A stretch of 28,397 nucleotides of DNA from positions 1 through 28,397 of the forward strand of contig CAYRXN010000088.1 of the NCBI GenBank assembly GCA_964428275.1, in the 5' to 3' direction. This document shows positions 1 through 28,397 of this stretch, piece after piece. Within the stretch, counting starts at the first letter, position 1. Every line of letters begins with the position of its first letter. The translations under genes and the position numbers were made by a program. This DNA comes from an uncultured Planctomycetales bacterium. Lineage in GTDB: Bacteria; Planctomycetota; Phycisphaerae; UBA1845; Fen-1342. Below the pieces are notes generated by a model. That model worked only from the letters and a program-made list of their open reading frames with translations. It was not told the origin of the DNA and made no database searches.

Positions 1-831
1 TTTGAGCGCAAAGTGGAGCAGGGCGTAGAGTGCGATCAGGGCCCGCTGGCCGTCGGAAAGCTCGTTGAAGTCGAATACCGTCGGACGGCCCCCCGCACTG
101 GCAGACGCAAACTCGACGCGCAGCAACTTGGCGTTGCGTCCCAGGTTCTCCAAGCTCAGGTTTTCGAATCCGGGCAAGGCTTCTTGCAAGTCGGCCAGGA
201 GGCCGGCCAGGCTCTTTCCATCGCCCGCAGCGTGACGATACCACGCAACGAAGTCCGCCATCGAACTGCTGGGGAGCTCCGCCTCGGCCTGCGAAGACGA
301 GGCCATATTGGGCGCGTCGACGCGGACCGTGTAAATGCGCTTCAGGCGCTCGCGGAACCAGGTGAGCTTGGTGTTGACGTCTTGAGGCTGAATGGTGGCC
401 AGCGCCGACCGGCTCCAGTCGAACGGATAACAAGGGCCTTCAGAAAAGTCGTCCCGGAACAATCGAACGCGTCCCTCTTTGAACTCGAACAACCGCCCCC
501 CCGCGACTCCGAGCGTTTCCAGTACCACACGCGAACGTCGGCCGGCGCCGGCGTGTTCGATTTCGAGTCGGTACTGATAGAGTTCGGTGTCCCTCCACGC
601 TTCGAGCTCGAATACTTGCGTGGACAACGATTGCCAGCGTGTGAGCGTATCGGGCGCGAATACGGCATCAAGCGGTGCCGACTCGACAACGAAGTCCCGC
701 AACCCGCCCAGAACATCCATGACGCTGCTCTTGCCGGTGCCATTACGCCCCAACAAGAGTTGCTTGGGTTCCAGGGGAAGCGTGAAATTGACGAAAGCCC
801 GATAGTTGTCAATGTAGAGCTGCTTCAACAT
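1..831 (-). CDS. AAA-family ATPase of the SMC/RecF-like ABC type (AAA_15/AAA_21-like); N-terminal 277 aa only, the 3' end of the gene lies beyond the window start
   Basis: Minus-strand reading frame open from ATG (829-831) to position 1. It is absent from the ORF track because it has no stop inside the window. The N-terminus MLKQLYIDNYRAFVNFTLPLEPKQLLLGRNGTGKSS contains a Walker A (GRNGTGKSS). Later FNELSDGQRALIALYALL is a signature/D-loop-like motif typical of this ATPase class. An SD-like GGGAG/GGAGG lies 8-14 nt upstream of the ATG. The gene is co-oriented with pheS and sits 41 nt downstream of it. Confidence 0.75.
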   Translation of the reverse strand, partial: MLKQLYIDNYRAFVNFTLPLEPKQLLLGRNGTGKSSVMDVLGGLRDFVVESAPLDAVFAPDTLTRWQSLSTQVFELEAWRDTELYQYRLEIEHAGAGRRSRVVLETLGVAGGRLFEFKEGRVRLFRDDFSEGPCYPFDWSRSALATIQPQDVNTKLTWFRERLKRIYTVRVDAPNMASSSQAEAELPSSSMADFVAWYRHAAGDGKSLAGLLADLQEALPGFENLSLENLGRNAKLLRVEFASASAGGRPTVFDFNELSDGQRALIALYALLHFALK

Positions 832-871
832 GGCCAGGCTCCCTGCCTCCCCCCTGGCGATGGTACACCAT

Positions 872-2404
872 TCATGATCGGCACAGCGGCGCCTCCCGGA
901 GCCACGGCATGGTGGCGAAGTACAGATCACCGATGGACTTGAGCCCGTGGATCATCATTGCGAGCCGCTCCAGCCCCAGACCCCACGCCAGCACGCGGTC
1001 GGTAATGCCCAGCGGCAGCGTGACTTCCGGGCGAAACAGGCCCGAGCCGCCCATCTCGACCCACTCGTCGCGATGTTCGAGCCACAGGAAGACCTCCGCC
1101 GACGGCTCGGTGTAGGGGAAGAAGCTCGGGCGGAAGCGGATCTTCGGAAACCCCATCTTCTTGTAGAACGCCGCCAGCGTCCCCAGCAGCGACGCCAGGC
1201 TGGCGCTTCTGTCCACGATGATCCCGTCCACCTGGTGAAAGACCGGCAAGTGCTTGTAGTCCACCGTCTCGCGGCGGAATACCGGGCCGATCACGAAATA
1301 CTTGCCCGGCCGGCCCGGCTGGTGGCGGGCCAGCGCGCGGATCGTGGCCGCGGTGGTGTGCGTGCGCAGCACGGGCTTGTGAGCCAGCTCGCGATCCCAG
1401 CGGTATTGCCAGCCGGTCGATCCGGTGTCGCCGCCGTTTTCGTGCGTGGCGCGGATGCGCTCGACGAGCGCGTCTCCGGGCAGCGTGCAGCGGTCGGGCC
1501 GGGCGACGTAGAAGGTGTCCTGCATGTCGCGGGCGGGATGGTCCTGGGGCTGGAACAGCGCGTCGAAGTCCCAGAAGCTCGACTCGACCCACGGACTGAC
1601 GATCTCCTCGAAACCCATCTCCAGAAAGACTCTCCGGACCTTGTCGAGCGTGCGCTGAAACGCGTGCTCCTTGCCGGGATAGAGCTTCTTGGCGGCCAGG
1701 GTCACGTCGTAGGGCTGCAGGTCCACGTCACGCCACGAGCCGTCCGCGAGCATTTCGGGCGTGAGCCGGGTGACCTTCCGCCGCGCCGTCACGCCCGCGG
1801 CCAGCAGCTTGCGCCCGGACTCGGTGATCGCCACGCGCCGATCGGTGCGGGCCTTGACGTTCAGGAAGCCCTTGCGCTTCCCCAGCAGCTTCAGGGCGGC
1901 GGCCACGTCGATGCCCTCGGCGGCGAGCTCGTCGGCACGGGCGGTGCGCCCGCCGGCCAAAGCGGCCAGCAGCAATTCGTCGGGCTGCTTTTCCTCGGCG
2001 TCGGCGCGCCCTTTTTCCGCCAGAACGAGCGTGTCGCCTTCCTTTTTCGCCCAGCCGCGCTGATTGAGCCAGCGCAACGACTGGCCGACCTGGCCGGCGT
2101 TGAGGTCGCAGTGCTCGGGAACCTCGGTGAGTTTGCAGCGGCCGCCCTGCGCGATCAGCACGGCGACGACCGTGCGCTCGGGCAGCGGGGCGTCGCCGAG
2201 CTTCCGGCCTTCCTTGCCGAGGCTGAGCTCGTCGTAGGCGGCCTCCTCGATTTCGACCAGCCCCTGCTCACGAAGCTGCGTGCACGCCGCCATCACCGGG
2301 GACTGGTCGGCCCCCAGGCGCCCGGCCAAGTCCGGTACGGAGACGGGCGCGTCGAGCTTCGCCAGAGCGGCGAGAATGTCGTAGTGAAGTTGTGGCAGTT
2401 CCAT
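872..2404 (-). CDS. pheS: Phenylalanine--tRNA ligase alpha subunit, long archaeal/eukaryotic-type architecture (510 aa, N-terminal winged-helix-like extension)
   Basis: ORF 872..2404(-). Class II aaRS motifs are present: FQPQDHPARDMQDTFY, LRTHTTAATIRAL, GPVFRRE, and FPYTEPS, which is characteristic of archaeal/eukaryal PheRS alpha. A ~200-aa N-terminal extension precedes the catalytic core. An SD GAGGGAG lies ~9 nt upstream of the ATG at 2404. Confidence 0.9.
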   Translation of the reverse strand: MELPQLHYDILAALAKLDAPVSVPDLAGRLGADQSPVMAACTQLREQGLVEIEEAAYDELSLGKEGRKLGDAPLPERTVVAVLIAQGGRCKLTEVPEHCDLNAGQVGQSLRWLNQRGWAKKEGDTLVLAEKGRADAEEKQPDELLLAALAGGRTARADELAAEGIDVAAALKLLGKRKGFLNVKARTDRRVAITESGRKLLAAGVTARRKVTRLTPEMLADGSWRDVDLQPYDVTLAAKKLYPGKEHAFQRTLDKVRRVFLEMGFEEIVSPWVESSFWDFDALFQPQDHPARDMQDTFYVARPDRCTLPGDALVERIRATHENGGDTGSTGWQYRWDRELAHKPVLRTHTTAATIRALARHQPGRPGKYFVIGPVFRRETVDYKHLPVFHQVDGIIVDRSASLASLLGTLAAFYKKMGFPKIRFRPSFFPYTEPSAEVFLWLEHRDEWVEMGGSGLFRPEVTLPLGITDRVLAWGLGLERLAMMIHGLKSIGDLYFATMPWLREAPLCRS

Positions 2405-2712: not shown

Positions 2713-5700
2713 CTACGCGCCCGACTCGCCGGCGCTGGCCTTGTACAACCCCACTTCCGCCAGCGCGGGGCGGGCGCGGCAATCGCGGACGATCAAACGC
2801 ACCCGCCGGGCGGTCACGGGGGCGAAGCGCAGCAGGCGCTTGTGGCCGATCGTCGTGCCCTCGGCGATCGGCCGCCAAGCGCCGCCGACCCGGGCCTCGA
2901 TCGCGAACGAACGCACCCGCTGCCCCAGCTCGATCGCTTCGCCGAGCATCGCCCGATCGAACGTGCGCGGCTCGTGCAGGTCGAGCTCGAGCACCGCGGC
3001 GTATGCCTCCTCAGCCGGCGTCCACCAGGTGTGCCGATCGCCATCGACGACGGCGGCCGCGGGATGGCCTGTGGCCGAGGGCAGGTCGGCGGAAGCGACC
3101 GCGCCGCTGGCCAGGTTGGTCGCGAACGTCTCGTCCAGCACGCGGCGGAACTCCCGCAGCCGGGCCGCGTCGGCCTCGTGGATCAGCCCGCGTTTGTCGG
3201 GCGGAACGTTGAGCAACAAAACGCCGTTGCGGCCTGCCGATTTGTAGTAAATATCAACGAGTTGCCGCACGGACTTGACCTGGCCGTCCTGCGCGGCGTG
3301 GTAGAACCAGCCCGGCCGGATCGAAACGTCGCACTCGGCCGGCACCCAGCAGTCGCCGTCTTCGTGGCCGGAGGTCAGTTGCTTGTACTTGGGTGTGCCG
3401 GGGTAGAACTCGCCGCAGCGCAGCGTGGACCAGTTGGTCTGGCCCGCAAGGCCGTGCTCGTTGCCGACCCAGCGCACGTCGGGGCCGCCGTCGGAAAAGA
3501 TGACCGCCTCGGGTGCCAGCGTTCGCACGATCTCGTAGTAGCCGGCCCAGTCGTACACCTGCCGCTTGCCGTTGGGGCCTTCGCCGCAGGCGCCATCGAA
3601 CCACTGCTCGTAGACCGGGCCGTAGCTCGTGAGCAGCTCGGTGAGCTGCTTCTTGTAGAACTCGTTGTAACGCGGCGAATCGCCGTAGCTCGGCTCGTGG
3701 CGGTCCCAGGGCGAAAGGTACAGGCCGAGCTTCAGGCCCGCCTCGCGGCACGCCTCGGCCAACTCGCGGACCACGTCGCCCCCTCCCCCGCGCCAGGGGC
3801 TGCGCTTGACCGAATGGTCCGTGTAGCGGCTCGGCCAGAGGCAGAACCCGTCGTGGTGTTTGGCGGTGAGGATGACCTGTTTGAAGCCGGCGGCCTTGAG
3901 CACCCGCACCCACTGGCGGGCATCGAGCTGCGTCGGGTTGAACAGGGCAGGGTCTTCGCGTCCGGTACCCCACTCGCGATCGGTGAACGTGTTGATGCCG
4001 AAGTGCAGGAACGCGATCAGTTCCAGTTCCTGCCAGGCCATCTGACGCGCCGACGGCGCAGGCAGCTTCGCCCCCGGCGCGGGACGCGGGGCCGACCGGA
4101 CGTCGTAGCAGAGCATATCGCGCCCCAGCCGGCGGCGGTCCAGCCCCGGGCCGCGGAGAAAGACTTCGAGCCCGTCGCCGCCGGTCTTTTCGAAGAAGGT
4201 GATGGTGAGCGGGTGGCGGCCGGCCGCCAGCGCGACCACGCCGGTCGCGGACCTCATGCCGTGCAGGCCGTCGTTGTCCACCACCAGCTCGTCGCCGATG
4301 TACAGCCGGCTGCCGTCGTCGGAGATGGTCTCGAACGTGTACACGCCCTCGGCCGGGACCGTCACGAAACCGCGATAGCGCAGCGCGAAGTGTTCCTGAT
4401 GATGCCGGGGCGCGAACGTGATCTCCGGCACGACGCCGGCCGAAACGGGCGTCAGCCGGTCGAAATCGGGCAGGCGGTTCCAGTCGCCCTCGTAATACTC
4501 GAAGCACAGCCCCGGGGCGGTTCGGGCGACCGTCACCGCCGGCCGCGGGGCGACCTTGCGGAAAGTCGCCTCGGCGACGGGGCTGACCGGCCGGCCGGCG
4601 CGGAACAGCCGCGCGCGCACGGTCGCGCTGTCGGTCAGCCGCACCGGGCCGCCTGCCAGCGGCGACGAGGCCGTCACTTCGCCGCCGTCGATCGTGTAGC
4701 GAATCTCGACGTTCTCGCGGTCGGAGGTGATCTCCACGTCGAGCGTATCGACGAAGATGTCGTGTGCCGCGGCGATCTTGGGCGGCATGCTCACGTCGAC
4801 CCGGCCGGCCACGTCGAGCACCACGACCGCGTCGATCGGGTCGGGCGTCTCGGCCGGCACGGCGATCAGCAGGGCGTCTTCCCGTCGCGTGACCTCCAGC
4901 GGCGCGCGGTCGGCGTCGGCCAGCAGGGTCGCCCGGCGCGGCTCGTTGTAGATGCCCGGCACGACCAGCGGCCCGTCGGCGGGCCAGTCGAAGACGTGCA
5001 GGTAGAGCCGCGTGTCGCCGCCGACCAGCCGCTTCTGCGTGCAGCGGCCCCAGGTAAGACGGGCAAACGGGCTGGCCTGCGTGGCGTAGATCGACTCGCC
5101 GTTGACCTTCATCCACCGGCCGATCTCGCGCAGCCGCTCGACGCTCTCGGCGGGGAACGTGCCGTCGGCCCTGGGGCCGACGTTGAGCAGGAAGTTGCCG
5201 CCCTTCGAGGCGATGTCGGCCAGCTTGCGGATCAGGTCTTTGGTGGACTTGAAATCGTGGTCGTGTTTGTTGTAGCCCCAGTGCCGGTTCATGGTCATGC
5301 AGGTTTCCCAGTCCACGCCGGGCAGACCGGTCGCGGGGATGCGCTGCTCGGGCGTACCGAAATCGCCGGCGAAGCCCGCATCGCTCAGGCCGCCCATGCC
5401 GCCGCGGCCCTTGTCGACGCGGTTGTTGACGATCACGTCGGGCTGGAGGCGGCAGCACAGGTCGTAGAGCGCCTGGCCGTAGGCGTGGTTCCACGTCGCT
5501 TCCCATTCGCCGTCGAACCACATGACGCCGATGGGGCCGTAGTTGGTGAGCAGCTCGGTGACCTGGTTGCGCAGGTACTCGACGTAGCGATCGAAGTCCG
5601 CCCCGTTGGGCGGGCGGTCCTGCTTCTCCCACCCGCGGCGGGGCAGGTAGTCGGGATGGTGCCAGTCCATGATCGAGTGGTACCAGCACATCTTCAGCCC

Positions 5701-6198
5701 GCGTTTGCGGCAGGCCTCGGAAAGCTCTTTCATGATGTCGCGCCTGAAGGGCGTGGACATGATGTCGAAGTCGGTGTACTTCGAGTCGAACAGGCAGAAG
5801 CCGTCGTGGTGCTTGGTGGTGATGACGATGTACTTCATGCCGGCGTCGGCGGCCATCCGGGCCCACGCGTCGGCGTCGAACTTGACCGGGTTGAACTGCG
5901 CGACGAGCTTCTCGTACCGTTCGACCGGGATGCGCGCGGTGGTGCGGATCCACTCGGCGTGGTTGGTCTGTCCGTTCCACTGACCGGCCGGGATCGCATA
6001 GAGCCCCCAGTGAATAAACATGCCAAACCGCGCCTCACGCCACCATTTCATGCGCGTGTCGCGTGTCGGGCGGGCATTGTCCACCACCGCTCTCGCCGCA
6101 TCGGCGCTCCCCGTCACGCCCGGATCCGGTTGCGCCAGCCCGGCCCGCCCCCCCCACAACATGGCAATGACCGCGACCAGCAATCCGACTTTCATCAT
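2713..6198 (-). CDS. Secreted multidomain alpha-L-fucosidase: GH29 catalytic domain (approx. aa 48-400), Fn3/CHB_HEX_C-like domain, PA14 domain (approx. aa 555-690), second GH29 catalytic domain (approx. aa 715-1020), C-terminal F5/8 type C (discoidin) domain
   Basis: ORF 2713..6198(-), 1161 aa. N-terminal signal peptide MMKVGLLVAVIAMLWGGRAGLA. GH29 block 1: FGMFIHWGLYAIPAG...KYIVITTKHHDGFCLFDSKYTDFD...MWFDGEW. PA14-like: CFEYYEGDWNRLPDFD...ALRYRGFVTVPAEGVYTFETISDDGSRLYIGDELVVDNDGLHG. GH29 block 2: LIAFLHFGINTFTDREWG...KQVILTAKHHDGFCLWPSRYTD...EQWFDGACGEG. C-terminal discoidin-like: HTWWTPAEEAYAAVLELDL...RVRL. SD GGGAGA lies 5 nt upstream of the ATGATG start. Confidence 0.9.
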   Translation of the reverse strand: MMKVGLLVAVIAMLWGGRAGLAQPDPGVTGSADAARAVVDNARPTRDTRMKWWREARFGMFIHWGLYAIPAGQWNGQTNHAEWIRTTARIPVERYEKLVAQFNPVKFDADAWARMAADAGMKYIVITTKHHDGFCLFDSKYTDFDIMSTPFRRDIMKELSEACRKRGLKMCWYHSIMDWHHPDYLPRRGWEKQDRPPNGADFDRYVEYLRNQVTELLTNYGPIGVMWFDGEWEATWNHAYGQALYDLCCRLQPDVIVNNRVDKGRGGMGGLSDAGFAGDFGTPEQRIPATGLPGVDWETCMTMNRHWGYNKHDHDFKSTKDLIRKLADIASKGGNFLLNVGPRADGTFPAESVERLREIGRWMKVNGESIYATQASPFARLTWGRCTQKRLVGGDTRLYLHVFDWPADGPLVVPGIYNEPRRATLLADADRAPLEVTRREDALLIAVPAETPDPIDAVVVLDVAGRVDVSMPPKIAAAHDIFVDTLDVEITSDRENVEIRYTIDGGEVTASSPLAGGPVRLTDSATVRARLFRAGRPVSPVAEATFRKVAPRPAVTVARTAPGLCFEYYEGDWNRLPDFDRLTPVSAGVVPEITFAPRHHQEHFALRYRGFVTVPAEGVYTFETISDDGSRLYIGDELVVDNDGLHGMRSATGVVALAAGRHPLTITFFEKTGGDGLEVFLRGPGLDRRRLGRDMLCYDVRSAPRPAPGAKLPAPSARQMAWQELELIAFLHFGINTFTDREWGTGREDPALFNPTQLDARQWVRVLKAAGFKQVILTAKHHDGFCLWPSRYTDHSVKRSPWRGGGGDVVRELAEACREAGLKLGLYLSPWDRHEPSYGDSPRYNEFYKKQLTELLTSYGPVYEQWFDGACGEGPNGKRQVYDWAGYYEIVRTLAPEAVIFSDGGPDVRWVGNEHGLAGQTNWSTLRCGEFYPGTPKYKQLTSGHEDGDCWVPAECDVSIRPGWFYHAAQDGQVKSVRQLVDIYYKSAGRNGVLLLNVPPDKRGLIHEADAARLREFRRVLDETFATNLASGAVASADLPSATGHPAAAVVDGDRHTWWTPAEEAYAAVLELDLHEPRTFDRAMLGEAIELGQRVRSFAIEARVGGAWRPIAEGTTIGHKRLLRFAPVTARRVRLIVRDCRARPALAEVGLYKASAGESGA

Positions 6199-6289
6199 GG
6201 GGTATCTCCCGTATCCGGTTTCGCAGGCATCGCCCGTCCGGGTTCGTTCGTCCGCGACGCTGGCGCCTTCTCGGTGGGCGGCAGCCGCG

Positions 6290-7093
6290 TTAAAACGGAT
6301 TCTCGCGCAAGATCCCGTCGATCATCGGCCGGACCATCTCGGCCCAGACGCGGTAGCCGGCCTTCTTGAAATGAATGCAGTCACCGCGCATCAGTTTCGG
6401 GTCGGCGGTGCCGTCTGCGCGGATGAAGCGCCGGGCCAGGTCCACCAGTCGCACGCGCTTGCCGTCGGCCATCTGCCGAATCGCCCGGTTGACAGCTTCG
6501 ACTTTCTCGCGGACGGGGTCGTCAGCGGTCTTGCCGCGTTCGATCGTACACAGCAGGATCGTCGCGCGGGGCGCCTTGGTCGCCAGCCGATCGAGGATCG
6601 CCCGGATGCCGGCGGCGATGTCGGCGGCGCTGTCGTGCGGCAGGTTGTTGGTCCCGATCAGCAGGACGATCACGCGCGGATCGATGTGGTCGAAGTTGCC
6701 GTGGTCGATTCGCCAGAGGACGTGTTGCGTGCGGTCGCCGCTGATCCCGAAGTTGGCCGCGTGCATACCGCCGAAGAACTTCCGCCACAGATTGCCGGCG
6801 GACGTCCCGACTCTTCGCCCCGGACCACCCCAGCCCTGCGTGATCGAATCGCCGAGGAAGACGACTTGCAGGTCGGGGTGTTCCTTGCCGATCCGGTTGA
6901 TCGCCAGGTGTTGATCCATCCAGGTTCCCTTTCCCCAGCCCGCCGCCGCGGCGCGGTCTTCCCGGCTTGCCACGGGCACGAGCGTCGCCGGTTTTCTGAC
7001 GGGCCGGCTCGATTGCCGCGCAAGGGCCGAAGCCGCAAGCGCCGCCGCCGTCACGAACAGTACGATGCCCTTGGTTGTCCCCGCACGGGCCAT
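6290..7093 (-). CDS. Secreted SGNH/GDSL-family hydrolase (carbohydrate esterase/acylhydrolase-like)
   Basis: ORF 6290..7093(-), 267 aa. Signal peptide MARAGTTKGIVLFVTAAALAASALA. SGNH blocks: GDSITQGWG (block I, Ser nucleophile), GTNNL (block III), DCIHF (block V, DxxH). SD GGGAGG lies 7 nt upstream. A 91-nt gap separates it from the downstream co-oriented fucosidase gene, so an operon is likely. Confidence 0.85.
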   Translation of the reverse strand: MARAGTTKGIVLFVTAAALAASALARQSSRPVRKPATLVPVASREDRAAAAGWGKGTWMDQHLAINRIGKEHPDLQVVFLGDSITQGWGGPGRRVGTSAGNLWRKFFGGMHAANFGISGDRTQHVLWRIDHGNFDHIDPRVIVLLIGTNNLPHDSAADIAAGIRAILDRLATKAPRATILLCTIERGKTADDPVREKVEAVNRAIRQMADGKRVRLVDLARRFIRADGTADPKLMRGDCIHFKKAGYRVWAEMVRPMIDGILRENPF

Positions 7094-7198
7094 GACCTGC
7101 CTCCCGGAAAGTTGAGCCTACCCGACCAGACGGCACCCGACGAGGCGAGTGCCCCTCCCCACAAACTTACTCGCCCAGACGGAAAGTTCGCACAGCGG

Positions 7199-7213
7199 CA
7201 TGATAGAATCACG
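7199..7213 (+). promoter_or_regulatory. Extended -10-like element TGATAGAAT (motif GATAGAATCAC) about 100 nt upstream of the 7311 gene
   Basis: tgaTAGAATcac read directly. It is AT-rich in a 70% GC background. The same 11-mer core recurs in gene-sense orientation upstream of three other minus-strand genes (10863-10873, 19516-19521, 22323-22333). Confidence 0.35.
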
Positions 7214-7310
7214 GGCATTCAAATACCACGGCCTGTTGCTCGTTACGCACCGGCGCGTTGCCAACACGAGTGCCGGCCCTTCGACAAACGGGAAACAGGA
7301 CGCGCCGATT

Positions 7311-8474
7311 ATGGCCATACCTCCTGAACAACCCGATCACGACGTCTTGAACGCCCAACGCGGCAACCGCGTACTGCCGCTGTTTCTGCGCCTGCGGCTG
7401 CTGCTGGGCGGCCCACTCGGTGCAGCCCTGGTCCTGTGGGCCGTTGCACTCTTGGTGCTGCTGTTTCTGAGCCGTGTCAGCAGTTCTGGCTTCGCGGTCC
7501 TGTTTGGCTACGTGTTGGCAATCGGATTGGTGGTTGTGCTTTGGCGCCTGGGCACCCGCCGCCGCTACGGCAGGGAGCTTCGTTGCGCCTCGTGCGGATA
7601 CCTGCTGGCCCCGGCAGGAGTCGGCGAACGCTGCCCCGAATGCGGCGCCGCCTGGCTCCAGCCACACGGACGACGCGCAGGTCTGCCCGCCGGCTTTCCC
7701 TGGCTGCGCATACCGGCGGCGCTACTGGCAATCCTGGTCGCGCTGTCGCTCACGGGCTCAACCCGGACATTCCTGCGTCTCAGCACCCGAATCGCGTCAA
7801 CCGACGCCCTGATCCGCTGTGCGACCGCCAGTAACCACCGCTCCGCATGGTTTGCCTGGGCAGAGCTCCAGGACCGCCAGCTCACGTCCGGACAGCGCAG
7901 CCGCCTCATACGTGCGGTACTCGAAATGCCCCCCCAGTGGACGTCGACGGCGTTGAGCTGTTCCTGGCTCGGGAGTGCCGCCTCGCGCGGCCAGCTGTCC
8001 GCACAAGAGATAGACCGTGTTGTCGATGGAGTGCTGGAACTGCGTCTGAGCGCGCCTGCCGTAGTGGAAGCAGGCAAGTCCTTCGACGTTGCGGTCGAAG
8101 GCAGACTGCGCCTGCTGCTGCTGTTCCTGTACCCGGTCCACGTCGTCGGGTCGCGGATCGAGACCACCGGCCCCCTGGTCCTTCACGATTCGGAAGACTT
8201 GCCGAAGAGCGTCTTCGGCTTTGCCTTCAAGTCTCCCACCGGAGGTTTTACCGGTGCGGCGAAAGGGGAGCTCCGCTTTACCGGGCTGGCCACTGCCCCG
8301 GGCACCGCAACCGTTCACTACGTCGCGTGGATTGTTTCCTACACGCCGGGGCGGGACATCCAATGCCGTGCCGACGGAACCCCCATCCTGCCGCCGGGCA
8401 TCACGCGAATGAAGAGCATCGACCTGACCAGGACGATCACGATTCGCCCCGCCCCGGCTTCACAACCCCGGTGA
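7311..8474 (+). CDS. Hypothetical integral membrane protein with an internal zinc-ribbon (C-x2-C ... C-P-x-C) between TM helices and a ~250-aa C-terminal domain of unknown function
   Basis: Longest frame in 7.1-8.5 kb (ORF track 7149..8474; start placed at the first ATG, MAIPPEQ, codon 55 of that ORF). Hydrophobic helices LPLFLRLRLLLGGPLGAALVLWAVALLVLLFL and FAVLFGYVLAIGLVVVLW. Zinc ribbon CASCGYLLAPAGVGERCPECG. GC3 is visibly lower than in neighbouring genes. The start is uncertain (alternative ATG at ~7200, or the GTG at 7149). Confidence 0.55.
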   Translation: MAIPPEQPDHDVLNAQRGNRVLPLFLRLRLLLGGPLGAALVLWAVALLVLLFLSRVSSSGFAVLFGYVLAIGLVVVLWRLGTRRRYGRELRCASCGYLLAPAGVGERCPECGAAWLQPHGRRAGLPAGFPWLRIPAALLAILVALSLTGSTRTFLRLSTRIASTDALIRCATASNHRSAWFAWAELQDRQLTSGQRSRLIRAVLEMPPQWTSTALSCSWLGSAASRGQLSAQEIDRVVDGVLELRLSAPAVVEAGKSFDVAVEGRLRLLLLFLYPVHVVGSRIETTGPLVLHDSEDLPKSVFGFAFKSPTGGFTGAAKGELRFTGLATAPGTATVHYVAWIVSYTPGRDIQCRADGTPILPPGITRMKSIDLTRTITIRPAPASQPR

Positions 8475-8550: not shown

Positions 8551-9906
8551 TCAGCGGGGATCGGCCGGGCCCGCCGCGTCCGCCAACGGAATCGTATCGC
8601 TGCCGTTGCCGGTCATGTTGCCGGCGATGTTCTGCGACAGCTTGCGCAGGTCGACGCCGAGCACCGACTCCACGGTGGCCAGCGTTTCGGAGAGCATCCT
8701 GGCCCGGCCCAGCGCGGCACCGGCCATGGCTTTGCCGTTGCCGCCGTCGATGACGGTGATGCTGCCGAGATCCACACCCTCGATCGTGGACGCCAACCGC
8801 TGGACGATGTTGGGCATCATCTCGACCAGCATGACCTTGAGCGCGTCCGGGTGCTTCTGGATCGACTGGCCGATCTGCTCGATCGCCGCGGCGCGGGCCT
8901 TGCCCTCTTCCAGCGTGCTGGCCGCGTCACCTTCGGCCTTGGCCTTGGCCACGTCGCGAGCCGCCAGGGCGCGGGCAACCTCGGTCGCCGTCAGCCGGGC
9001 CCGTTCGGCCTCGGCCTCGGCCTCCTGCTGGCTGGCTTCCTTGAGCGCGGCCTCGCGGGCGAGTTCGGCCTTGCGGATCCGCAGGTCGTTGTCCGCCTCG
9101 GCGATCGCCTTTTCGGCCGCCAGCCGGGCCTGCTCGGCCTGCTGGTGCGACTCGGCTTCGATCTGCTTGGCTTCGGCGTCGCGCGCGGCCTTGGCCTTGC
9201 GGGCGGCGGCGTTGGCCTCGGCCTCCTTGATGACGGCTTCGGCGGCGCGGGCCGCCTCGGCCTTGCGGGCCGCCGAGATGACCTCGGCCCGGGCCTTGCG
9301 CGCGATCGATTCGAGGTACTGCTCCTCGTCGTGAACGTTCTGGATGTTCACGCTGTCGATCACGAGACCGAGCTTGCGCAGGTCGTCGGAAACCTCGTCC
9401 ATGACGGTCTGCACGAACTTGTCGCGGTCCTCGACGATTTCTTCGGGGGTCATCTTGCCGATCACGGCCCGCAGGCCGCCTTCGAGCGTCTCGCGGGCGA
9501 CGCGCTGCATTTCGACGATCGGCTCACCGAGGAAACGCTCGATCGCGGCCCCGCGAATCGCGGGGTCGGAGGACACTTTCACGTTGGCCACCCCGGTCAC
9601 GGTGATCGGCATCATCGTGCCGCCGCCGGACTGGGCCTTGACCTCGAGCGCGACCTGCATGTTGCGCAGGCTGATGCGCATGACCTTGTTGATGACCGGG
9701 ATGACGACCTTGCGCCCGCCGATCAGCACGCGATAGCCGACGCCTTCGCGGCCGGTGCCGCCGGTGATGACGACCATTTCGTTCGGATTGCCAACCACGA
9801 CCAGCTTGGCGATCGTGATGACGATCGCAACCACGATGAACAGAACGACCCCGAAGAACACGATGACCGCCATCGGGACGTCCGCGGATGGTGCTGCCAG
9901 CATCAT
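8551..9906 (-). CDS. Flotillin-family SPFH/band-7 protein (FloT/YqiK-like) with an N-terminal TM helix and an EA-rich coiled-coil
   Basis: Frame of ORF 8551..10341(-). Start assigned to the ATGATG at 9906/9903, preceded by SD GGAGA (gagggagatacgaaATGATG). MMLAAPSADVPMAVIVFFGVVLFIVVAIVITIAKL is followed by an SPFH core and a long Ala/Glu/Lys-rich repeat region typical of flotillins. The start overlaps the stop of the upstream nfeD-like gene (ATGA), suggesting translational coupling. Confidence 0.9.
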   Translation of the reverse strand: MMLAAPSADVPMAVIVFFGVVLFIVVAIVITIAKLVVVGNPNEMVVITGGTGREGVGYRVLIGGRKVVIPVINKVMRISLRNMQVALEVKAQSGGGTMMPITVTGVANVKVSSDPAIRGAAIERFLGEPIVEMQRVARETLEGGLRAVIGKMTPEEIVEDRDKFVQTVMDEVSDDLRKLGLVIDSVNIQNVHDEEQYLESIARKARAEVISAARKAEAARAAEAVIKEAEANAAARKAKAARDAEAKQIEAESHQQAEQARLAAEKAIAEADNDLRIRKAELAREAALKEASQQEAEAEAERARLTATEVARALAARDVAKAKAEGDAASTLEEGKARAAAIEQIGQSIQKHPDALKVMLVEMMPNIVQRLASTIEGVDLGSITVIDGGNGKAMAGAALGRARMLSETLATVESVLGVDLRKLSQNIAGNMTGNGSDTIPLADAAGPADPR

Positions 9907-10667
9907 TTCGTATCTCCCTCTACTGAGTGCATCCGTTGCTCGAACTGCGCGCGCGAGACGACCCGGGCGACCCCCGCCCGATAGCCGACGACGACCACTT
10001 CCTCCCCCGCGGCGAAACTGGCCCGGGCATCGTCCGCGACCGCCGGCACATTCCGCCGGGTGCCGCGCACGTGCAGGGCCACTTCTCCCTTGCGGGGATG
10101 GTGGATCGCGATCGTGACGCGCGCCAGTTTGTTTACGTAATCGCGCGGACTGGGCGTGCTGTCGCCCGACGTGCGCCTGATCGTCCGGAACATCTGGTGC
10201 ACGGCCTGCCCCACGGCGACGCCGGCGACCAGCGCGACGACCAGCGTGGCGGTTCGCCCCACCGCCGTCAGGTGGGTCAGAATCACGCCGACGGCGCCAA
10301 AGACCGCCAGAAAGAACACGACGAACCGCATCGAGAACCACGTCGCCAGCGCCGCGGCCCCGCCGCCGGCGGCGTGCGAAGCGTGCGCGATGTCGGTGTC
10401 GATGTCCGTTCCGACGTCCACGTCGAAATCGGCCGCCCCGTCGATGTCGAAATCGGCATCCACGTCGAAATCGGCGTCGAGATCGAGATCGGCCATATGC
10501 ACGTCGGCGTCGAAATCGACGCCCGTGTGCGCATCGACGCCGGCATCCGCGTGGGAACCACCGATGATCGACACGAGCAGCAAGCCGCCGCCGACAATCA
10601 ACGCGCCCCAGTAGGCGATGTCGAGCGCCGCCGCATCCGCCAGAAGATGTGCCGCCATTTCGGTCAT
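9903..10667 (-). CDS. NfeD/YqiJ-like membrane protein (flotillin partner; C-terminal OB-fold-like) with an internal acidic DFDVDA-type repeat insert
   Basis: ORF 9903..10667(-), 254 aa. It is the conserved upstream partner position of flotillin operons (yuaF-floT / yqiJ-yqiK arrangement). TM segments are present, followed by a C-terminal soluble domain ...VTIAIHHPRKGEVALHVRGTRRNVPAVADD...GEEVVVVGYRAGVARV. SD GGAGA lies 6 nt upstream of ATG 10667. Confidence 0.8.
   Translation of the reverse strand: MTEMAAHLLADAAALDIAYWGALIVGGGLLLVSIIGGSHADAGVDAHTGVDFDADVHMADLDLDADFDVDADFDIDGAADFDVDVGTDIDTDIAHASHAAGGGAAALATWFSMRFVVFFLAVFGAVGVILTHLTAVGRTATLVVALVAGVAVGQAVHQMFRTIRRTSGDSTPSPRDYVNKLARVTIAIHHPRKGEVALHVRGTRRNVPAVADDARASFAAGEEVVVVGYRAGVARVVSRAQFEQRMHSVEGDTK
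10405..10520. repeat. Intragenic imperfect ~18-nt tandem repeats (gtcgaaatcggc core x4) encoding the acidic DFDxD repeats of the NfeD-like protein
   Basis: The gtcgaaatcggc core sits at 10422, 10446 and 10464, with gtcgaaatcgac at 10509. Protein: DFDADVHMADLDLDADFDVDADFDIDGAADFDVDVGTDIDTD. Confidence 0.7.
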
Positions 10668-11264: not shown

Positions 11265-12395
11265 TTACCCGCTCTCGGCGGGCTCGCGGATCAGCGAACG
11301 AACCTGCTGCGCGATGTCGCCGGAACCGAAGACGAACGTCGCCTTCATGCCGGCGAGCACCTCCTGGAGCAACTCCAGCTCCTTCATCCGCGCCAGCACC
11401 GGATTCTCCGCCAGGAGTTTCGCGGTGTTGGCCTGGCTGCGGGCCGCGGCGGTCTCCTCCCGCCGCTTGATCAGGTTCGCCTGGGCCCGCTTCTCGGCGG
11501 TGATGACCTGGTTGAGAATGGCCTTCATCTCGCCGGGCAGGATGATGTCGCGCAGACCCACGCTGCGCACCGTGACGCCGAACTCGGCCACCCGGCGCGC
11601 GATCGTGCCGCGAACCTCGCCGCTGACGGCCTCCTTGTCGCCGAGCAGGGCGTCGAGCGTGCGCGTACCGACCGCCGCCCGCAGCGCGAGCTGCGCCTCG
11701 CGGTAGAGCGCCTGGGTGGGGTCGCTGACGGTGGCCGCGGCCTTCTCGGCGTCGATCACCTGGAACGTCACCACCAGGTTCACGCGCAGCGTGACCTTGT
11801 CACGGGTCATGATCTCCTGGCCCGCCACGTCGACCATCTGCTCGCGCAGGTCCACCGACCGCCACACGATCCGGCCCGCGTTCTTCCAGAACACGTACCG
11901 GCCCTCGCGCAGCTTCTCGATCAGCCGGCCGTTGACGTACAGCAACACGACCTCGTGCGCGTCCACGTCGATGCCCTCGAAAAACGTGCGGGCGGCCGGG
12001 TGCGCCAGCACCGCATCGAGCCGCTTGTGCTCGAATCGCAGCGTCGCGACGTCGTACCGCTCGACCTCCAGTTTGTACGGCGTCTTCCAGAAGGCGTACC
12101 GGCCGGGGCCGAGCACCGCCAGCAAGCGGCCGTCTTTCCAGACCAGCGCACGTTCGTGGTCGGCCAGCTCGACGACCTCGAGCGCCTCACGCATGTCGGC
12201 GTGGCGGATCAGCACGTCGAGCAGGGCGTGATCGAAGCGCGTCTTGAGCGTGTCCACGACTTCGATCACCGACGCCCGGCGGCCCAGCAACCGCTCCCAG
12301 AGGCGATAGGTGCCCGGGCCGCGCAGTCCCTGGAAATCACCGTGGCGAAACGCCAGACCGCGCTCGTGCTGCTTGATGCGAACGGTGATGAACAT
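11265..12395 (-). CDS. SPFH/band-7 (stomatin/slipin-like) protein without an N-terminal TM helix, with a triplicated N-terminal beta-hairpin segment preceding the SPFH core
   Basis: Frame of ORF 11265..12716(-). Start placed at ATG 12395 (MFITVRIKQ), which has a strong SD (ccggAAAGGAGGtcgatcATG). SPFH core: TRDKVTLRVNLVVTFQVIDAEKAA ... C-terminal NPVLARMKELELLQEV. Three ~45-aa N-terminal repeats each carry a G(T/R)Y(R/A/V)(L/F)W motif: GPGTYRLWERLLG.., GPGRYAFWKTPYK.., REGRYVFWKNAGR... Confidence 0.85.
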   Translation of the reverse strand: MFITVRIKQHERGLAFRHGDFQGLRGPGTYRLWERLLGRRASVIEVVDTLKTRFDHALLDVLIRHADMREALEVVELADHERALVWKDGRLLAVLGPGRYAFWKTPYKLEVERYDVATLRFEHKRLDAVLAHPAARTFFEGIDVDAHEVVLLYVNGRLIEKLREGRYVFWKNAGRIVWRSVDLREQMVDVAGQEIMTRDKVTLRVNLVVTFQVIDAEKAAATVSDPTQALYREAQLALRAAVGTRTLDALLGDKEAVSGEVRGTIARRVAEFGVTVRSVGLRDIILPGEMKAILNQVITAEKRAQANLIKRREETAAARSQANTAKLLAENPVLARMKELELLQEVLAGMKATFVFGSGDIAQQVRSLIREPAESG

Positions 12396-12738
12396 GATCG
12401 ACCTCCTTTCCGGTCGCCCGTCAGAAAGCCCCCCGCGTGCGAGGGACGGAAACCTCTGTTGCGAATCGGGGTGCCGCACGTGCGGCCCGCCCCGCCGCAG
12501 CCGGAGGGGTGGCGCTTGAGGCACGCCGGGCCCGCCCCCACGACGCCCTTCCCGCCCCCCCTTGCACGGGCCGGAACGCCGTGGTGACGGTCTGCCGCGC
12601 CGGTATCCGCGCCGCCGCAGGTCCACTGCGCCGGTGTCGGTCGGCCCGCGGGGCGTCGTTCGGAGGCGACGAACGCCCGCAACGGGCCGCCGACCGGCAA
12701 GCCGCCGGCCAGTCACCCCGATTCACATGGTGCGAGGC

Positions 12739-12793: not shown

Positions 12794-12870
12794 TGGTGTC
12801 CAGGCGGGACTCGAACCCGCAACACACAGTGTCTCGCACTGTTGCATCTGCCCTTTGAGCTACTGGACGC
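12794..12870 (-). tRNA. tRNA-like element, degenerate: the T-arm and acceptor end are canonical, but the D-stem pairs poorly and the anticodon loop (GCGAGAC) lacks U33. Possible tRNA pseudogene, att-site remnant or unusual tRNA
   Basis: Minus-strand sequence GCGTCCAGTAGCTCAAAGGGCAGATGCAACAGTGCGAGACACTGTGTGTTGCGGGTTCGAGTCCCGCCTGGACACCA (77 nt). T-arm GCGGG-TTCGAGT-CCCGC, then CTGGAC-A-CCA. A hairpin ACAGT-GCGAGAC-ACTGT stands in the anticodon-arm position. TAGCTCA is a standard D-arm start, but no GAGC complement is found. Confidence 0.35.
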
Positions 12871-23315: not shown

Positions 23316-23679
23316 TCATTATGCCCATCGGCGACGGGTTTTCCACCTTGGTTCCGTCAGGCGACCCGCGCAGCCGCACGCGGAGGGCGGGCGTCCCCGC
23401 TCCCCCCGGACCGCCGGAGCGCCTCGTGGTATCATGGCGGGCTGCAACGCGGTGACAGGTTCCCGGCGAGCGTCGGGGCGGGCGCGGGCTCCGCTTCCAC
23501 TGGTTTCGGACCATCCTCGAGAGCCCGGCGTGGCAGGCGGCCGTCGCAGCCGGGTCGGGCCGAGCCATGCCCCGCGTCCAGGTGTGGCCGCCCCCGTCTT
23601 CTTCGATCGCCTGCGCCGGGCGGCTATGATCCAGCGCAGGCGGCGCAGCGCACCGTAAGTGAGGCCCGGCGCAAGCACG

Positions 23680-28397
<4,718 letters not shown>

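Follow-up and report, generated by a model that had tools for sequence, protein, structure and literature searches.

Two GH29 alpha-L-fucosidase modules of different subfamilies on one predicted secreted protein, encoded next to an SGNH esterase gene in a planctomycete contig

Introduction

A stretch of 28,397 nucleotides (nt) of the contig CAYRXN010000088.1 of an uncultured Planctomycetales bacterium (positions 1 to 28,397), in the following called the window (approximately 68% G+C), encodes a protein of 1161 amino acids that carries two complete alpha-L-fucosidase modules of glycoside hydrolase family 29 (GH29) on one chain. Directly upstream, on the same strand, lies the gene of a smaller SGNH/GDSL esterase. 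We propose, with a probability of roughly 60%, that the larger protein is an exo-alpha-L-fucosidase which is secreted and has two functional active sites, one from each of two GH29 subfamilies, that it strips differently linked fucoses, and that the esterase gene is probably co-transcribed with it. Fucose caps block most exo-glycosidases, and fucoses in different linkages need different enzymes for their removal. Alignments and gene comparisons establish the domain identities, the intact catalytic residues, their conservation and the fusion origin of the predicted protein. Its components can each be assigned clearly to a known family, and the combination of a GH29-A with a GH29-B module recurs in environmental bacteria and is not a singular oddity.

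Results and Discussion

Gene structure and domain organization

The original prediction had described two open reading frames (ORFs) on one strand with a short gap between them; coordinates, strand and spacing were all confirmed (Table 1), and the peptide motifs that it quoted were all found in the translation. A ribosome-binding motif of the GGGAG type is located before the ATG of each gene, and in the case of the fucosidase it has the form of a Shine-Dalgarno-like GGGAGA, within the 91-nt spacer and 7 nt ahead of the start codon. The G+C content at third codon positions (GC3) is 0.90 in the fucosidase and 0.83 in the esterase, and the G+C content by codon position supports both frames. The start of the fucosidase agrees with the N-terminus of P0002, a homologue with 82% identity (MMKVGLLV / MMKIGLLV). 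Both N-termini exhibit a Sec-like signal peptide, judged by eye from a basic residue, a hydrophobic run and the motif GLA-Q or ALA-R. For the predicted signal peptide of the fucosidase the sole further support is the low confidence of residues 1-41 in the structure model.

The order of domains in the 1161-residue protein is signal peptide, GH29-A module, beta-sandwich, CHB_HEX_C domain, PA14 domain, Pro/Ala linker, GH29-B module and CBM32 domain. The Pfam matches of both proteins all exceed the gathering cut-offs, and they bear out the list given in the original prediction, namely two GH29 domains, a CHB_HEX_C-like domain, a PA14 domain and an F5/8 type C domain. No NCBIfam model matched the fucosidase.

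An AlphaFold model of the fucosidase, built with 29 homologues, has a mean predicted local distance difference test value (pLDDT) of 84 and a predicted template modeling score (pTM) of 0.53. It exhibits confident barrels and beta-sandwiches joined by short linkers, and the value of pTM is as expected because of this beads-on-a-string arrangement. When the model was compared with solved structures by Foldseek, each half fitted enzymes composed of a single catalytic module and one beta-sandwich, with target template modeling scores (TM-scores) of 0.86-0.94, and no solved chain spanned more than about 37% of the query.

Table 1. Features of the two-headed fucosidase gene and of the esterase gene upstream of it (window positions; aa, amino acid residues of the respective protein)
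Feature	Position	Strand	Basis
Whole gene, 1161-aa two-headed alpha-L-fucosidase	2713..6198	-	ORF, ATG start
F5/8 type C (CBM32-like) beta-sandwich, aa ~1033-1152	2743..3102	-	PF00754 E 2e-12; PF22633
GH29-B (beta/alpha)8 catalytic module, aa 716-1025	3124..4053	-	4ZRX, AfcB, SpGH29 and BT2192 matches
Acid/base E914	3457-3459	-	alignment to AfcB Glu217
Nucleophile D868	3595-3597	-	alignment to AfcB Asp172
Pro/Ala-rich linker, aa 701-715, RSAPRPAPGAKLPAP	4054..4098	-	comparison with unfused gene pairs L130, L157, L022, L044
PA14 domain, aa ~555-700 (Pfam core 594-674)	4099..4536	-	PF07691 E 3e-16
CHB_HEX_C_1 / Fn3_assoc Ig-like domain, aa 485-541	4576..4746	-	Pfam E 4e-10 and 5e-8
C-terminal beta-sandwich of GH29-A, aa ~380-465	4804..5061	-	6GN6 alignment to aa 462; model strands 384-463
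GH29-A (beta/alpha)8 catalytic module, aa 48-370	5089..6057	-	PF01120; 6GN6 match
Acid/base E284	5347-5349	-	alignment to aLfuk1 Glu239
Nucleophile D229	5512-5514	-	alignment to aLfuk1 Asp186
Predicted signal peptide, aa 1-22, MMKVGLLVAVIAMLWGGRAGLA followed by QP	6133..6198	-	sequence read; N-terminus conserved in P0002; low pLDDT of residues 1-41
Spacer from esterase stop to fucosidase start, exactly 91 nt	6199..6289	-	sequence read
Secreted SGNH/GDSL esterase gene, 267 aa, PAF-acetylhydrolase-Ib-like	6290..7093	-	ORF, ATG start; Lipase_GDSL_2
Esterase SGNH residues Ser83, Gly119, Asn149, Asp238 + His241	6845-6847 (Ser83); 6371-6382 (Asp238 + His241)	-	signature alignment

Two catalytic heads of different GH29 subfamilies

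The first module is, by alignment, a member of the GH29-A-like group. The family Alpha_L_fucos (PF01120) covers residues 48-368 (E 9e-102; 341 bits against a cut-off of 25.2), and the top solved matches are all GH29-A enzymes, namely aLfuk1 of Paenibacillus thiaminolyticus (6GN6, E 3e-110), BF3242 of Bacteroides fragilis (9EU1) and BT2970 of B. thetaiotaomicron (2WVV). Residues 45-462 align with these enzymes over their full length (E 3e-110 to 6e-81). In the structure model a (beta/alpha)8 barrel is followed by a beta-sandwich, and in Foldseek the target TM-score to 6GN6 is 0.86. Asp and Glu of the catalytic pair match those of the three enzymes, as do a His and an Arg; the residues of aLfuk1, Asp186 and Glu239, are tabulated together with the BT2970 equivalents Asp229 and Glu288 in PMC11796335 (Table 10). 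His23 and Arg218 of aLfuk1 correspond to H63 and R260 of the window protein. Whereas the window module is fused to further domains, the known enzymes have just the catalytic domain and the beta-sandwich, and aLfuk1 is a hexamer in which an adjacent subunit contributes to each active site. Characterised GH29-A enzymes are of broad specificity and act on alpha1,2, alpha1,3, alpha1,4 and alpha1,6 fucosides.

The second module falls, likewise by alignment, in the GH29-B-like group. PF01120 is matched from approximately residue 752 to residue 1019 (E 1.4e-40). Taken together with the discoidin domain behind it, the module has GH29-B enzymes as top solved matches, with BACOVA_04357 of B. ovatus (4ZRX, E 5e-145) and an Akkermansia muciniphila enzyme (8AYR) followed by AfcB of Bifidobacterium longum subsp. 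infantis (3UES/3MO4, E 9e-129), BT2192 (3EYP) and SpGH29 (6ORG, E 1e-116). With these GH29-B plus F5/8-type-C enzymes residues 716-1152 align end to end (E 1e-116 to 5e-145; 42-49% identity in structural alignment), and the Foldseek target TM-score of this half to AfcB, BT2192 and SpGH29 is 0.89-0.94. Characterised GH29-B enzymes remove alpha1,3/4-linked fucose from N-acetylglucosamine that also bears galactose, i.e. from Lewis-type branches. A strict alpha1,3/4 specificity on galactose-branched acceptors is predicted for the second module from its family membership.

The active-site set of the subfamily is present in the second module, with the His triad H732/H781/H782, Tyr827, Trp910 and Trp964; these residues, as well as the nucleophile and the acid/base, are the same as in the five GH29-B enzymes above. 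According to a published description of this set, which includes Asp172 and Glu217 of AfcB, the two Trp residues contact galactose in subsite +2' and fucose in subsite -1, the Tyr guides the nucleophile, and the enzymes need galactose in the +2' subsite (PMC11100010). Each of the five enzymes is a separate protein that has only one catalytic domain, whereas the window unit has lost a signal peptide of its own and is placed behind GH29-A, CHB_HEX_C and PA14.

That the protein holds two complete GH29 modules of different subfamilies, as originally predicted, is thus upheld by a GH29-A-like and a GH29-B-like module with 31% identity to each other. The prediction had also considered that one module might be missing a catalytic residue; D229 and E284 in the first and D868 and E914 in the second are all present, and both modules look catalytically competent. 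As far as can be told from their sequences, the two heads are ancient paralogues of different subfamilies. A recent internal duplication was considered as well and is ruled out by the low identity between the modules and their different subfamilies.

The accessory domains are equally well recognized. The PA14 domain scores 59.8 bits (PF07691, cut-off 24), is all-beta in the model and contains an SDDGS motif (S626-S630) that is invariant across the family. The F5_F8_type_C match spans residues 1041-1139 (47.8 bits, cut-off 28.2), and this CBM32-like domain aligns with its counterpart in 4ZRX, 8AYR and AfcB, where it occupies the same place C-terminal to GH29-B. Together with the CHB_HEX_C domain they are probably sugar-binding or spacer domains that hold the enzyme on its glycan.

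Conservation of both active sites, and other tandem layouts

Homologues were searched for among 5.8 billion protein clusters, and the top 120 matches were re-analysed with module-specific phmmer queries. Among them the full architecture is found in 44 cluster representatives with 49-82% identity to the window protein, derived from many samples and assemblers; those that are named carry the labels Phycisphaerae, Phycisphaerales or Planctomycetota. Both nucleophiles and both acid/bases are kept in 44 of the 44 fusion homologues, with gaps solely in truncated fragments, and both heads are therefore under purifying selection. At the 16 active-site positions that were checked in the 44 fusion proteins, H782A in nine distant members is the sole substitution.

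A different role for one of the heads has to be considered, in which one GH29 module is dead and acts only as a fucose-binding, lectin-like domain. Degenerate duplicates of catalytic domains do occur in multi-domain carbohydrate-active enzymes, and the distant subclade with H782A has a lower score for the second module. Against this, the window protein and all of its fusion homologues have kept both nucleophiles, both acid/bases and the His, Tyr and Trp residues that bind fucose, and both modules score far above the family thresholds, which leaves a dead module highly unlikely. The H782A subclade itself, in which the second His of the GH29-B His duo is replaced, consists of P0036, P0038-P0044 and P0046, some of them with lower module-2 scores, and in its members the second head may differ in specificity or be less active.

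Two or three GH29 modules are present in 99 of the top 120 matches. Besides the architecture of the window protein, a GH29A-GH29A layout of about 1020 residues occurs in 44 proteins from Verrucomicrobiota, Sedimentisphaerales and others, and a GH29B-CBM32-GH29A layout in eight, with named members from Fimbriimonadaceae. GH29A-GH29B-CBM32, GH29A-CHB-PA14-GH29A and a layout with three GH29-A modules (P0033, 1633 residues) are represented by one protein each, and 21 proteins have the single-headed layout GH29A-CHB-PA14. The other multi-GH29 layouts are found under the identifiers P0033, P0047-P0120 (about 1020 residues), P0063, P0069 and P0076, and they too appear to be uncharacterised. Judging from these matches, tandem GH29 proteins are common in environmental genomes, and among uncultured bacteria they are widespread in Planctomycetota, Verrucomicrobiota and Armatimonadota.

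In the searchable literature no description of an enzyme with GH29 modules in tandem was found, which is no proof of absence, and a review from 2023 presents GH29 enzymes as having one catalytic domain and one or two beta-sandwich domains (PMC10154630). The statement in the original prediction that tandem fusions within one family are uncommon thus applies to characterised enzymes only and does not extend to the databases. A GH29-A and a GH29-B module on one chain appears to be a biochemically uncharacterised, but conserved and fairly widespread, architecture.

Origin by gene fusion

The loci of related genes were surveyed in 167 sequences, i.e. 166 fetched loci and the window. The genome scan with the family alignment relied on generic GH29 motifs and yielded mostly single GH29 genes; the loci were re-analysed by module-specific phmmer. 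Genes for GH29A, alone or with CHB and PA14, often adjoin a GH29B-CBM32 gene on the same strand (L130, L157, L022, L044), and adjacent unfused pairs in reverse order are found in L007 and L015. The second gene of each adjacent unfused pair bears its own signal peptide. In the window protein the Pro/Ala linker occupies the position of the signal peptide of stand-alone GH29-B genes, and after the linker the homology to mature stand-alone GH29-B proteins resumes at the same N-terminal motif (ARQMAWQELE versus PQQIAWADLE and PQQYEWQKLE).

Comparison of the predicted proteins at these loci shows that the two-headed enzyme arose by fusion of neighbouring genes for secreted enzymes, GH29A-CHB-PA14 and GH29B-CBM32. 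The fused GH29-B modules form one tight score group above every stand-alone module, in line with a single old fusion followed by vertical inheritance, and the data fit inheritance of the fusion as a unit in a Phycisphaerae-like lineage. Recurrent adjacency together with fusion is classical evidence that two enzymes work in one pathway. A derivation of the fused GH29-B module specifically from the adjacent-gene type was considered and not adopted, the scores not separating those genes from other stand-alone GH29-B genes; the claim is limited to the general fusion scenario.

Since adjacent unfused pairs do exist in other genomes, it might be argued that two genes have been joined into one long ORF by an error of assembly or sequencing. 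The probability of this is practically negligible: the same continuous ORF is present in the 44 cluster representatives, which stem from different samples and assemblers, and in independent metagenome and metagenome-assembled-genome contigs, the junction is a Pro/Ala linker in which a second signal peptide has left no trace, and the coding GC3 is uniform at 0.90.

The esterase and its pairing with the fucosidase

The product of the upstream gene matches Lipase_GDSL_2 in Pfam (E 2e-30), and its S83, G119, N149, D238 and H241, located in the blocks GDS, Gly, GxND and DxxH, show no variation among 68 single-domain homologues. Of the solved structures, it is most similar to the catalytic subunits of platelet-activating factor acetylhydrolase Ib (PAF-AH Ib; E 4e-32), with which residues 54-252 align (1WAB, 1ES9, 3DT6) with Ser, Gly, Asn and Asp-x-x-His in register; in contrast to these subunits the window esterase is bacterial and secreted, and has an N-terminal extension. 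The next relatives are the Bacteroidales sialate O-acetylesterases 7PZG and 6NJC, to which the similarity is weak (E about 2e-8). The NCBIfam comparison gave only a domain match to the acetylxylan esterase AxeA1 that lies far below the threshold (33 bits, cut-off 700). Because the protein is closest to PAF-AH Ib, an acetyl-specific esterase activity is probably the most likely one.

In the nearest relative the two genes are found in the same order, esterase then fucosidase, with 82% protein identity for the fucosidase and 86% for the esterase. The pair was seen there across two contigs whose overlap is exactly k = 141, as well as in an independent assembly. On the minus strand of the spacer (6199-6289) no terminator-like or sigma-70-like site was detected by a scan that does not cover the promoters of this phylum and carries little weight in it. 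The operon of esterase and fucosidase put forward in the original prediction is therefore only partly sustained: the common strand, the 91-nt distance, the failure to find a terminator-like site in the spacer and the pair in the nearest relative speak for it, whereas the pairing is absent from those more distant fusion loci in which the upstream side is readable.

An association of the fucosidase with an esterase of another kind is found in the homologue P0004 (L004, 7001-11848; 1615 residues), where an N-terminal SASA domain (PF03629) is fused to the full GH29A-CHB-PA14-GH29B-CBM32 architecture. A transglutaminase-like gene follows P0004 in L004, and likewise a homologue in L088.

On the other side of the esterase gene, the window contains a divergent ORF (7149-8474, plus strand) of 441 codons that has no Pfam match and encodes hydrophobic stretches and a zinc-ribbon-like CxxC...CPxC motif. 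In the nearest relative (L085) no DNA match was found to this stretch of approximately 1.1-1.4 kb between the SPFH gene and the esterase, and for this reason the ORF looks like an insertion or a lineage-specific gene.

Neighbourhood and substrate

Among the main annotated ORFs of the window no gene for a sulfatase, endo-fucanase, transporter, regulator or utilisation locus was recognised, and neither a sulfatase nor an endo-fucanase or utilisation-locus gene was seen among the annotated neighbours in the fusion loci L002-L004, L087, L088 and L092. The relatives are more informative about the glycan. In L002 the fucosidase homologue is found among genes for GH38, GH2, a sodium:solute symporter, GH20 and GH109, in L003 together with a sodium:solute symporter and GH20, and in L088 a GH95 gene is located directly upstream. 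For comparison, the N-glycan locus of Streptococcus pneumoniae unites GH38, GH20 and a GH29-B enzyme (PMC5215778), and the enzyme set of the relatives resembles that of loci for the degradation of N-glycans or host glycans. Because of these neighbours, and of the need of GH29-B enzymes for galactose in subsite +2', multiply fucosylated, galactose-containing glycans are favoured over a sulfated fucan as the class of substrate.

In the original prediction the pair had been connected with a sulfated or acetylated fucan or fucosylated glycan, and the fucan part of this finds no support here. A fucoidan or sulfated-fucan system, in which the esterase would deacetylate the polymer before both GH29 modules remove fucose, is in keeping with the planctomycete host, as judged by the names of the homologues, and with the occurrence of GH29 enzymes and carbohydrate esterases in fucoidan breakdown by marine Planctomycetota and Verrucomicrobiota (PMC11685898). 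It is nevertheless improbable in view of the missing sulfatase, endo-fucanase and utilisation-locus genes, of the placement of the second module in the GH29-B group with its need for a galactose-branched acceptor, and of the GH20, GH38, GH2, GH109 and GH95 genes next to the relatives, which are typical of N-glycan or host-glycan degradation.

Proposed mechanism

We infer the linkage specificities, the substrate class, the tethering role, the co-transcription and the role of the esterase from what is known of the families and from the genes that surround the relatives. The protein would be secreted and tethered to its glycan by the PA14 and CBM32 domains. The GH29-A head would take generally accessible fucose (alpha1,2, alpha1,6 and similar), and the GH29-B head alpha1,3/4-linked fucose from galactose-branched N-acetylglucosamine. 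The esterase, where present and, as in the window, probably co-transcribed, would first clear O-acetyl groups that would otherwise block glycosidases. In this way differently linked fucose caps would be stripped from one multiply fucosylated, galactose-containing glycan, and one binding event would expose the chain to other exo-glycosidases. The glycan might be an N- or O-glycan of a glycoprotein, a glycan of plant or invertebrate origin, or a microbial exopolysaccharide.

Several observations weigh against this mechanism. Upstream sequence is readable in 77 family loci, and in only three of them, the window, L129 and L137, does an SGNH gene lie directly upstream; the nearest relative, read across its two overlapping contigs, is one further case. 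The upstream gene of L129 encodes a double-SGNH protein, and that of L137, an organism with 36% G+C, is only distantly related to the window esterase (36 bits), so that the association may be incidental. The more distant fusion loci that can be read on their upstream side (L002-L005, L087-L090, L092 and L093) have no SGNH gene nearby. It is also possible that the 91-nt spacer contains an internal promoter. As to the fucosidase itself, the H782A substitution in nine distant homologues means that the constraint on the second module is not identical everywhere, and the activities assigned to this architecture are predicted from sequence. The genes around the pair in the window are of housekeeping type, namely pheS, two SPFH/Band_7 genes, tRNA-Leu, acs (acetyl-CoA synthetase), sppA, thrC (threonine synthase) and a uvrA-like gene, and the context is therefore silent on the substrate; a DUF7453 protein is encoded in the window as well.

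Judging from the survey of loci, the esterase association is sporadic but has arisen several times. The esterase might be an unrelated neighbour with a role of its own, its adjacency a lineage-specific accident and the fucosidase able to work without it. We consider this a real possibility that falls somewhat short of an even chance. It agrees with the three occurrences in 77 loci and with the distant fusion loci that have no SGNH gene, as well as with the arrangement in the nearest relative, where the SPFH genes, on the strand of the esterase, precede it by only 370 nt, so that it could equally belong to their unit. On the other hand, the pair has been conserved with protein identities of 82-86%, and three other lineages show SGNH or SASA associations of independent origin, including the physical fusion in P0004. 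In the window, moreover, the divergent ORF lies between the SPFH genes and the esterase, which stays grouped with the fucosidase. The odds of a functional coupling between esterase and fucosidase are roughly even, and this lineage-specific coupling is the weakest step of the two-headed fucosidase mechanism.

A more far-reaching proposal, which as a whole is speculative and rather unlikely, concerns a division of labour. With the enzyme held on its glycan by PA14 and CBM32, one head would remove fucose (for example alpha1,2 on galactose or core) that blocks the other, so that doubly fucosylated Lewis b/y-like epitopes would be cleared in one encounter and more efficiently than by separate enzymes, with the acetylesterase, encoded separately in the window and fused as a SASA domain in P0004, as a third step; the many independent tandem layouts A-B, B-A, A-A and A-A-A would then represent a general strategy of environmental Planctomycetota, Verrucomicrobiota and Armatimonadota towards heavily fucosylated glycans.

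Precedents exist for both sides of the proposed arrangement. The best-known precedent of the principle is StrH of S. pneumoniae, in which two tandem GH20 catalytic domains on one secreted chain act on glycoprotein glycans (PMC5215778). It belongs to another GH family, has an LPXTG wall anchor and contains neither PA14 nor CBM32, and is thus an analogy only, with no homology to the window architecture. Complementary ranges on Lewis b/y antigens are known from SpGH95 and SpGH29 of the same species, an alpha1,2-acting and a GH29-B alpha1,3/4 fucosidase, of which SpGH95 accepts Lewis b and Lewis y, not Lewis a or Lewis x (PMC10154630). These are separate proteins, the first of them a GH95 enzyme, whereas the partner in the window is a GH29-A module fused in cis, with a linkage preference that is predicted only.

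A broad-specificity head joined to a Lewis-specific head could serve as a tool by which a single protein removes all fucose from glycoproteins or oligosaccharides, and it could be a test case for whether synergy results when two catalytic domains of one family are linked. The gain is incremental, as the subfamilies of both modules are well understood and glycosidases with several catalytic domains are familiar.

Other features of the window

Upstream of the pair, the two SPFH/Band_7 paralogues are located at 8551-10341 and 11265-12716, both on the minus strand. The first of them is preceded by a 254-residue ORF (9903-10667) that has no Pfam match, and this pair is conserved in L085. The only Rfam match over the whole window was to tRNA, a tRNA-Leu(GAG) at 12795-12869 (minus strand). 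At the far end the uvrA-like ORF (23659-28395, plus strand) runs off the window; it comprises at least 1579 residues, far exceeding the length of canonical UvrA, with UvrA_inter and UvrA_DNA-bind in central position and extra ABC-ATPase parts.

Promoter and terminator scanning revealed nothing informative, and the predicted folding of the 309-nt spacer downstream of the fucosidase does not surpass that of shuffled sequence (z = 0.37). Tandem repeats occur 3' of the fucosidase gene (2595-2689), with the 7-mer GAATGGC in 4.6 copies at 2595-2626 and an 8-mer in 3.9 copies at 2642-2673. The pheS gene that comes next (872-2404, minus strand) encodes a protein of 510 residues with an N-terminal winged helix (MarR_2/HTH_24), which greatly exceeds the usual length of bacterial PheS and recalls the archaeal/eukaryotic type in its layout. 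A partial gene at 1-951 (minus strand), which runs off the end of the window, encodes a P-loop ATPase of the AAA_15/AAA_21 (AbiEii-like) kind that is possibly related to defence.

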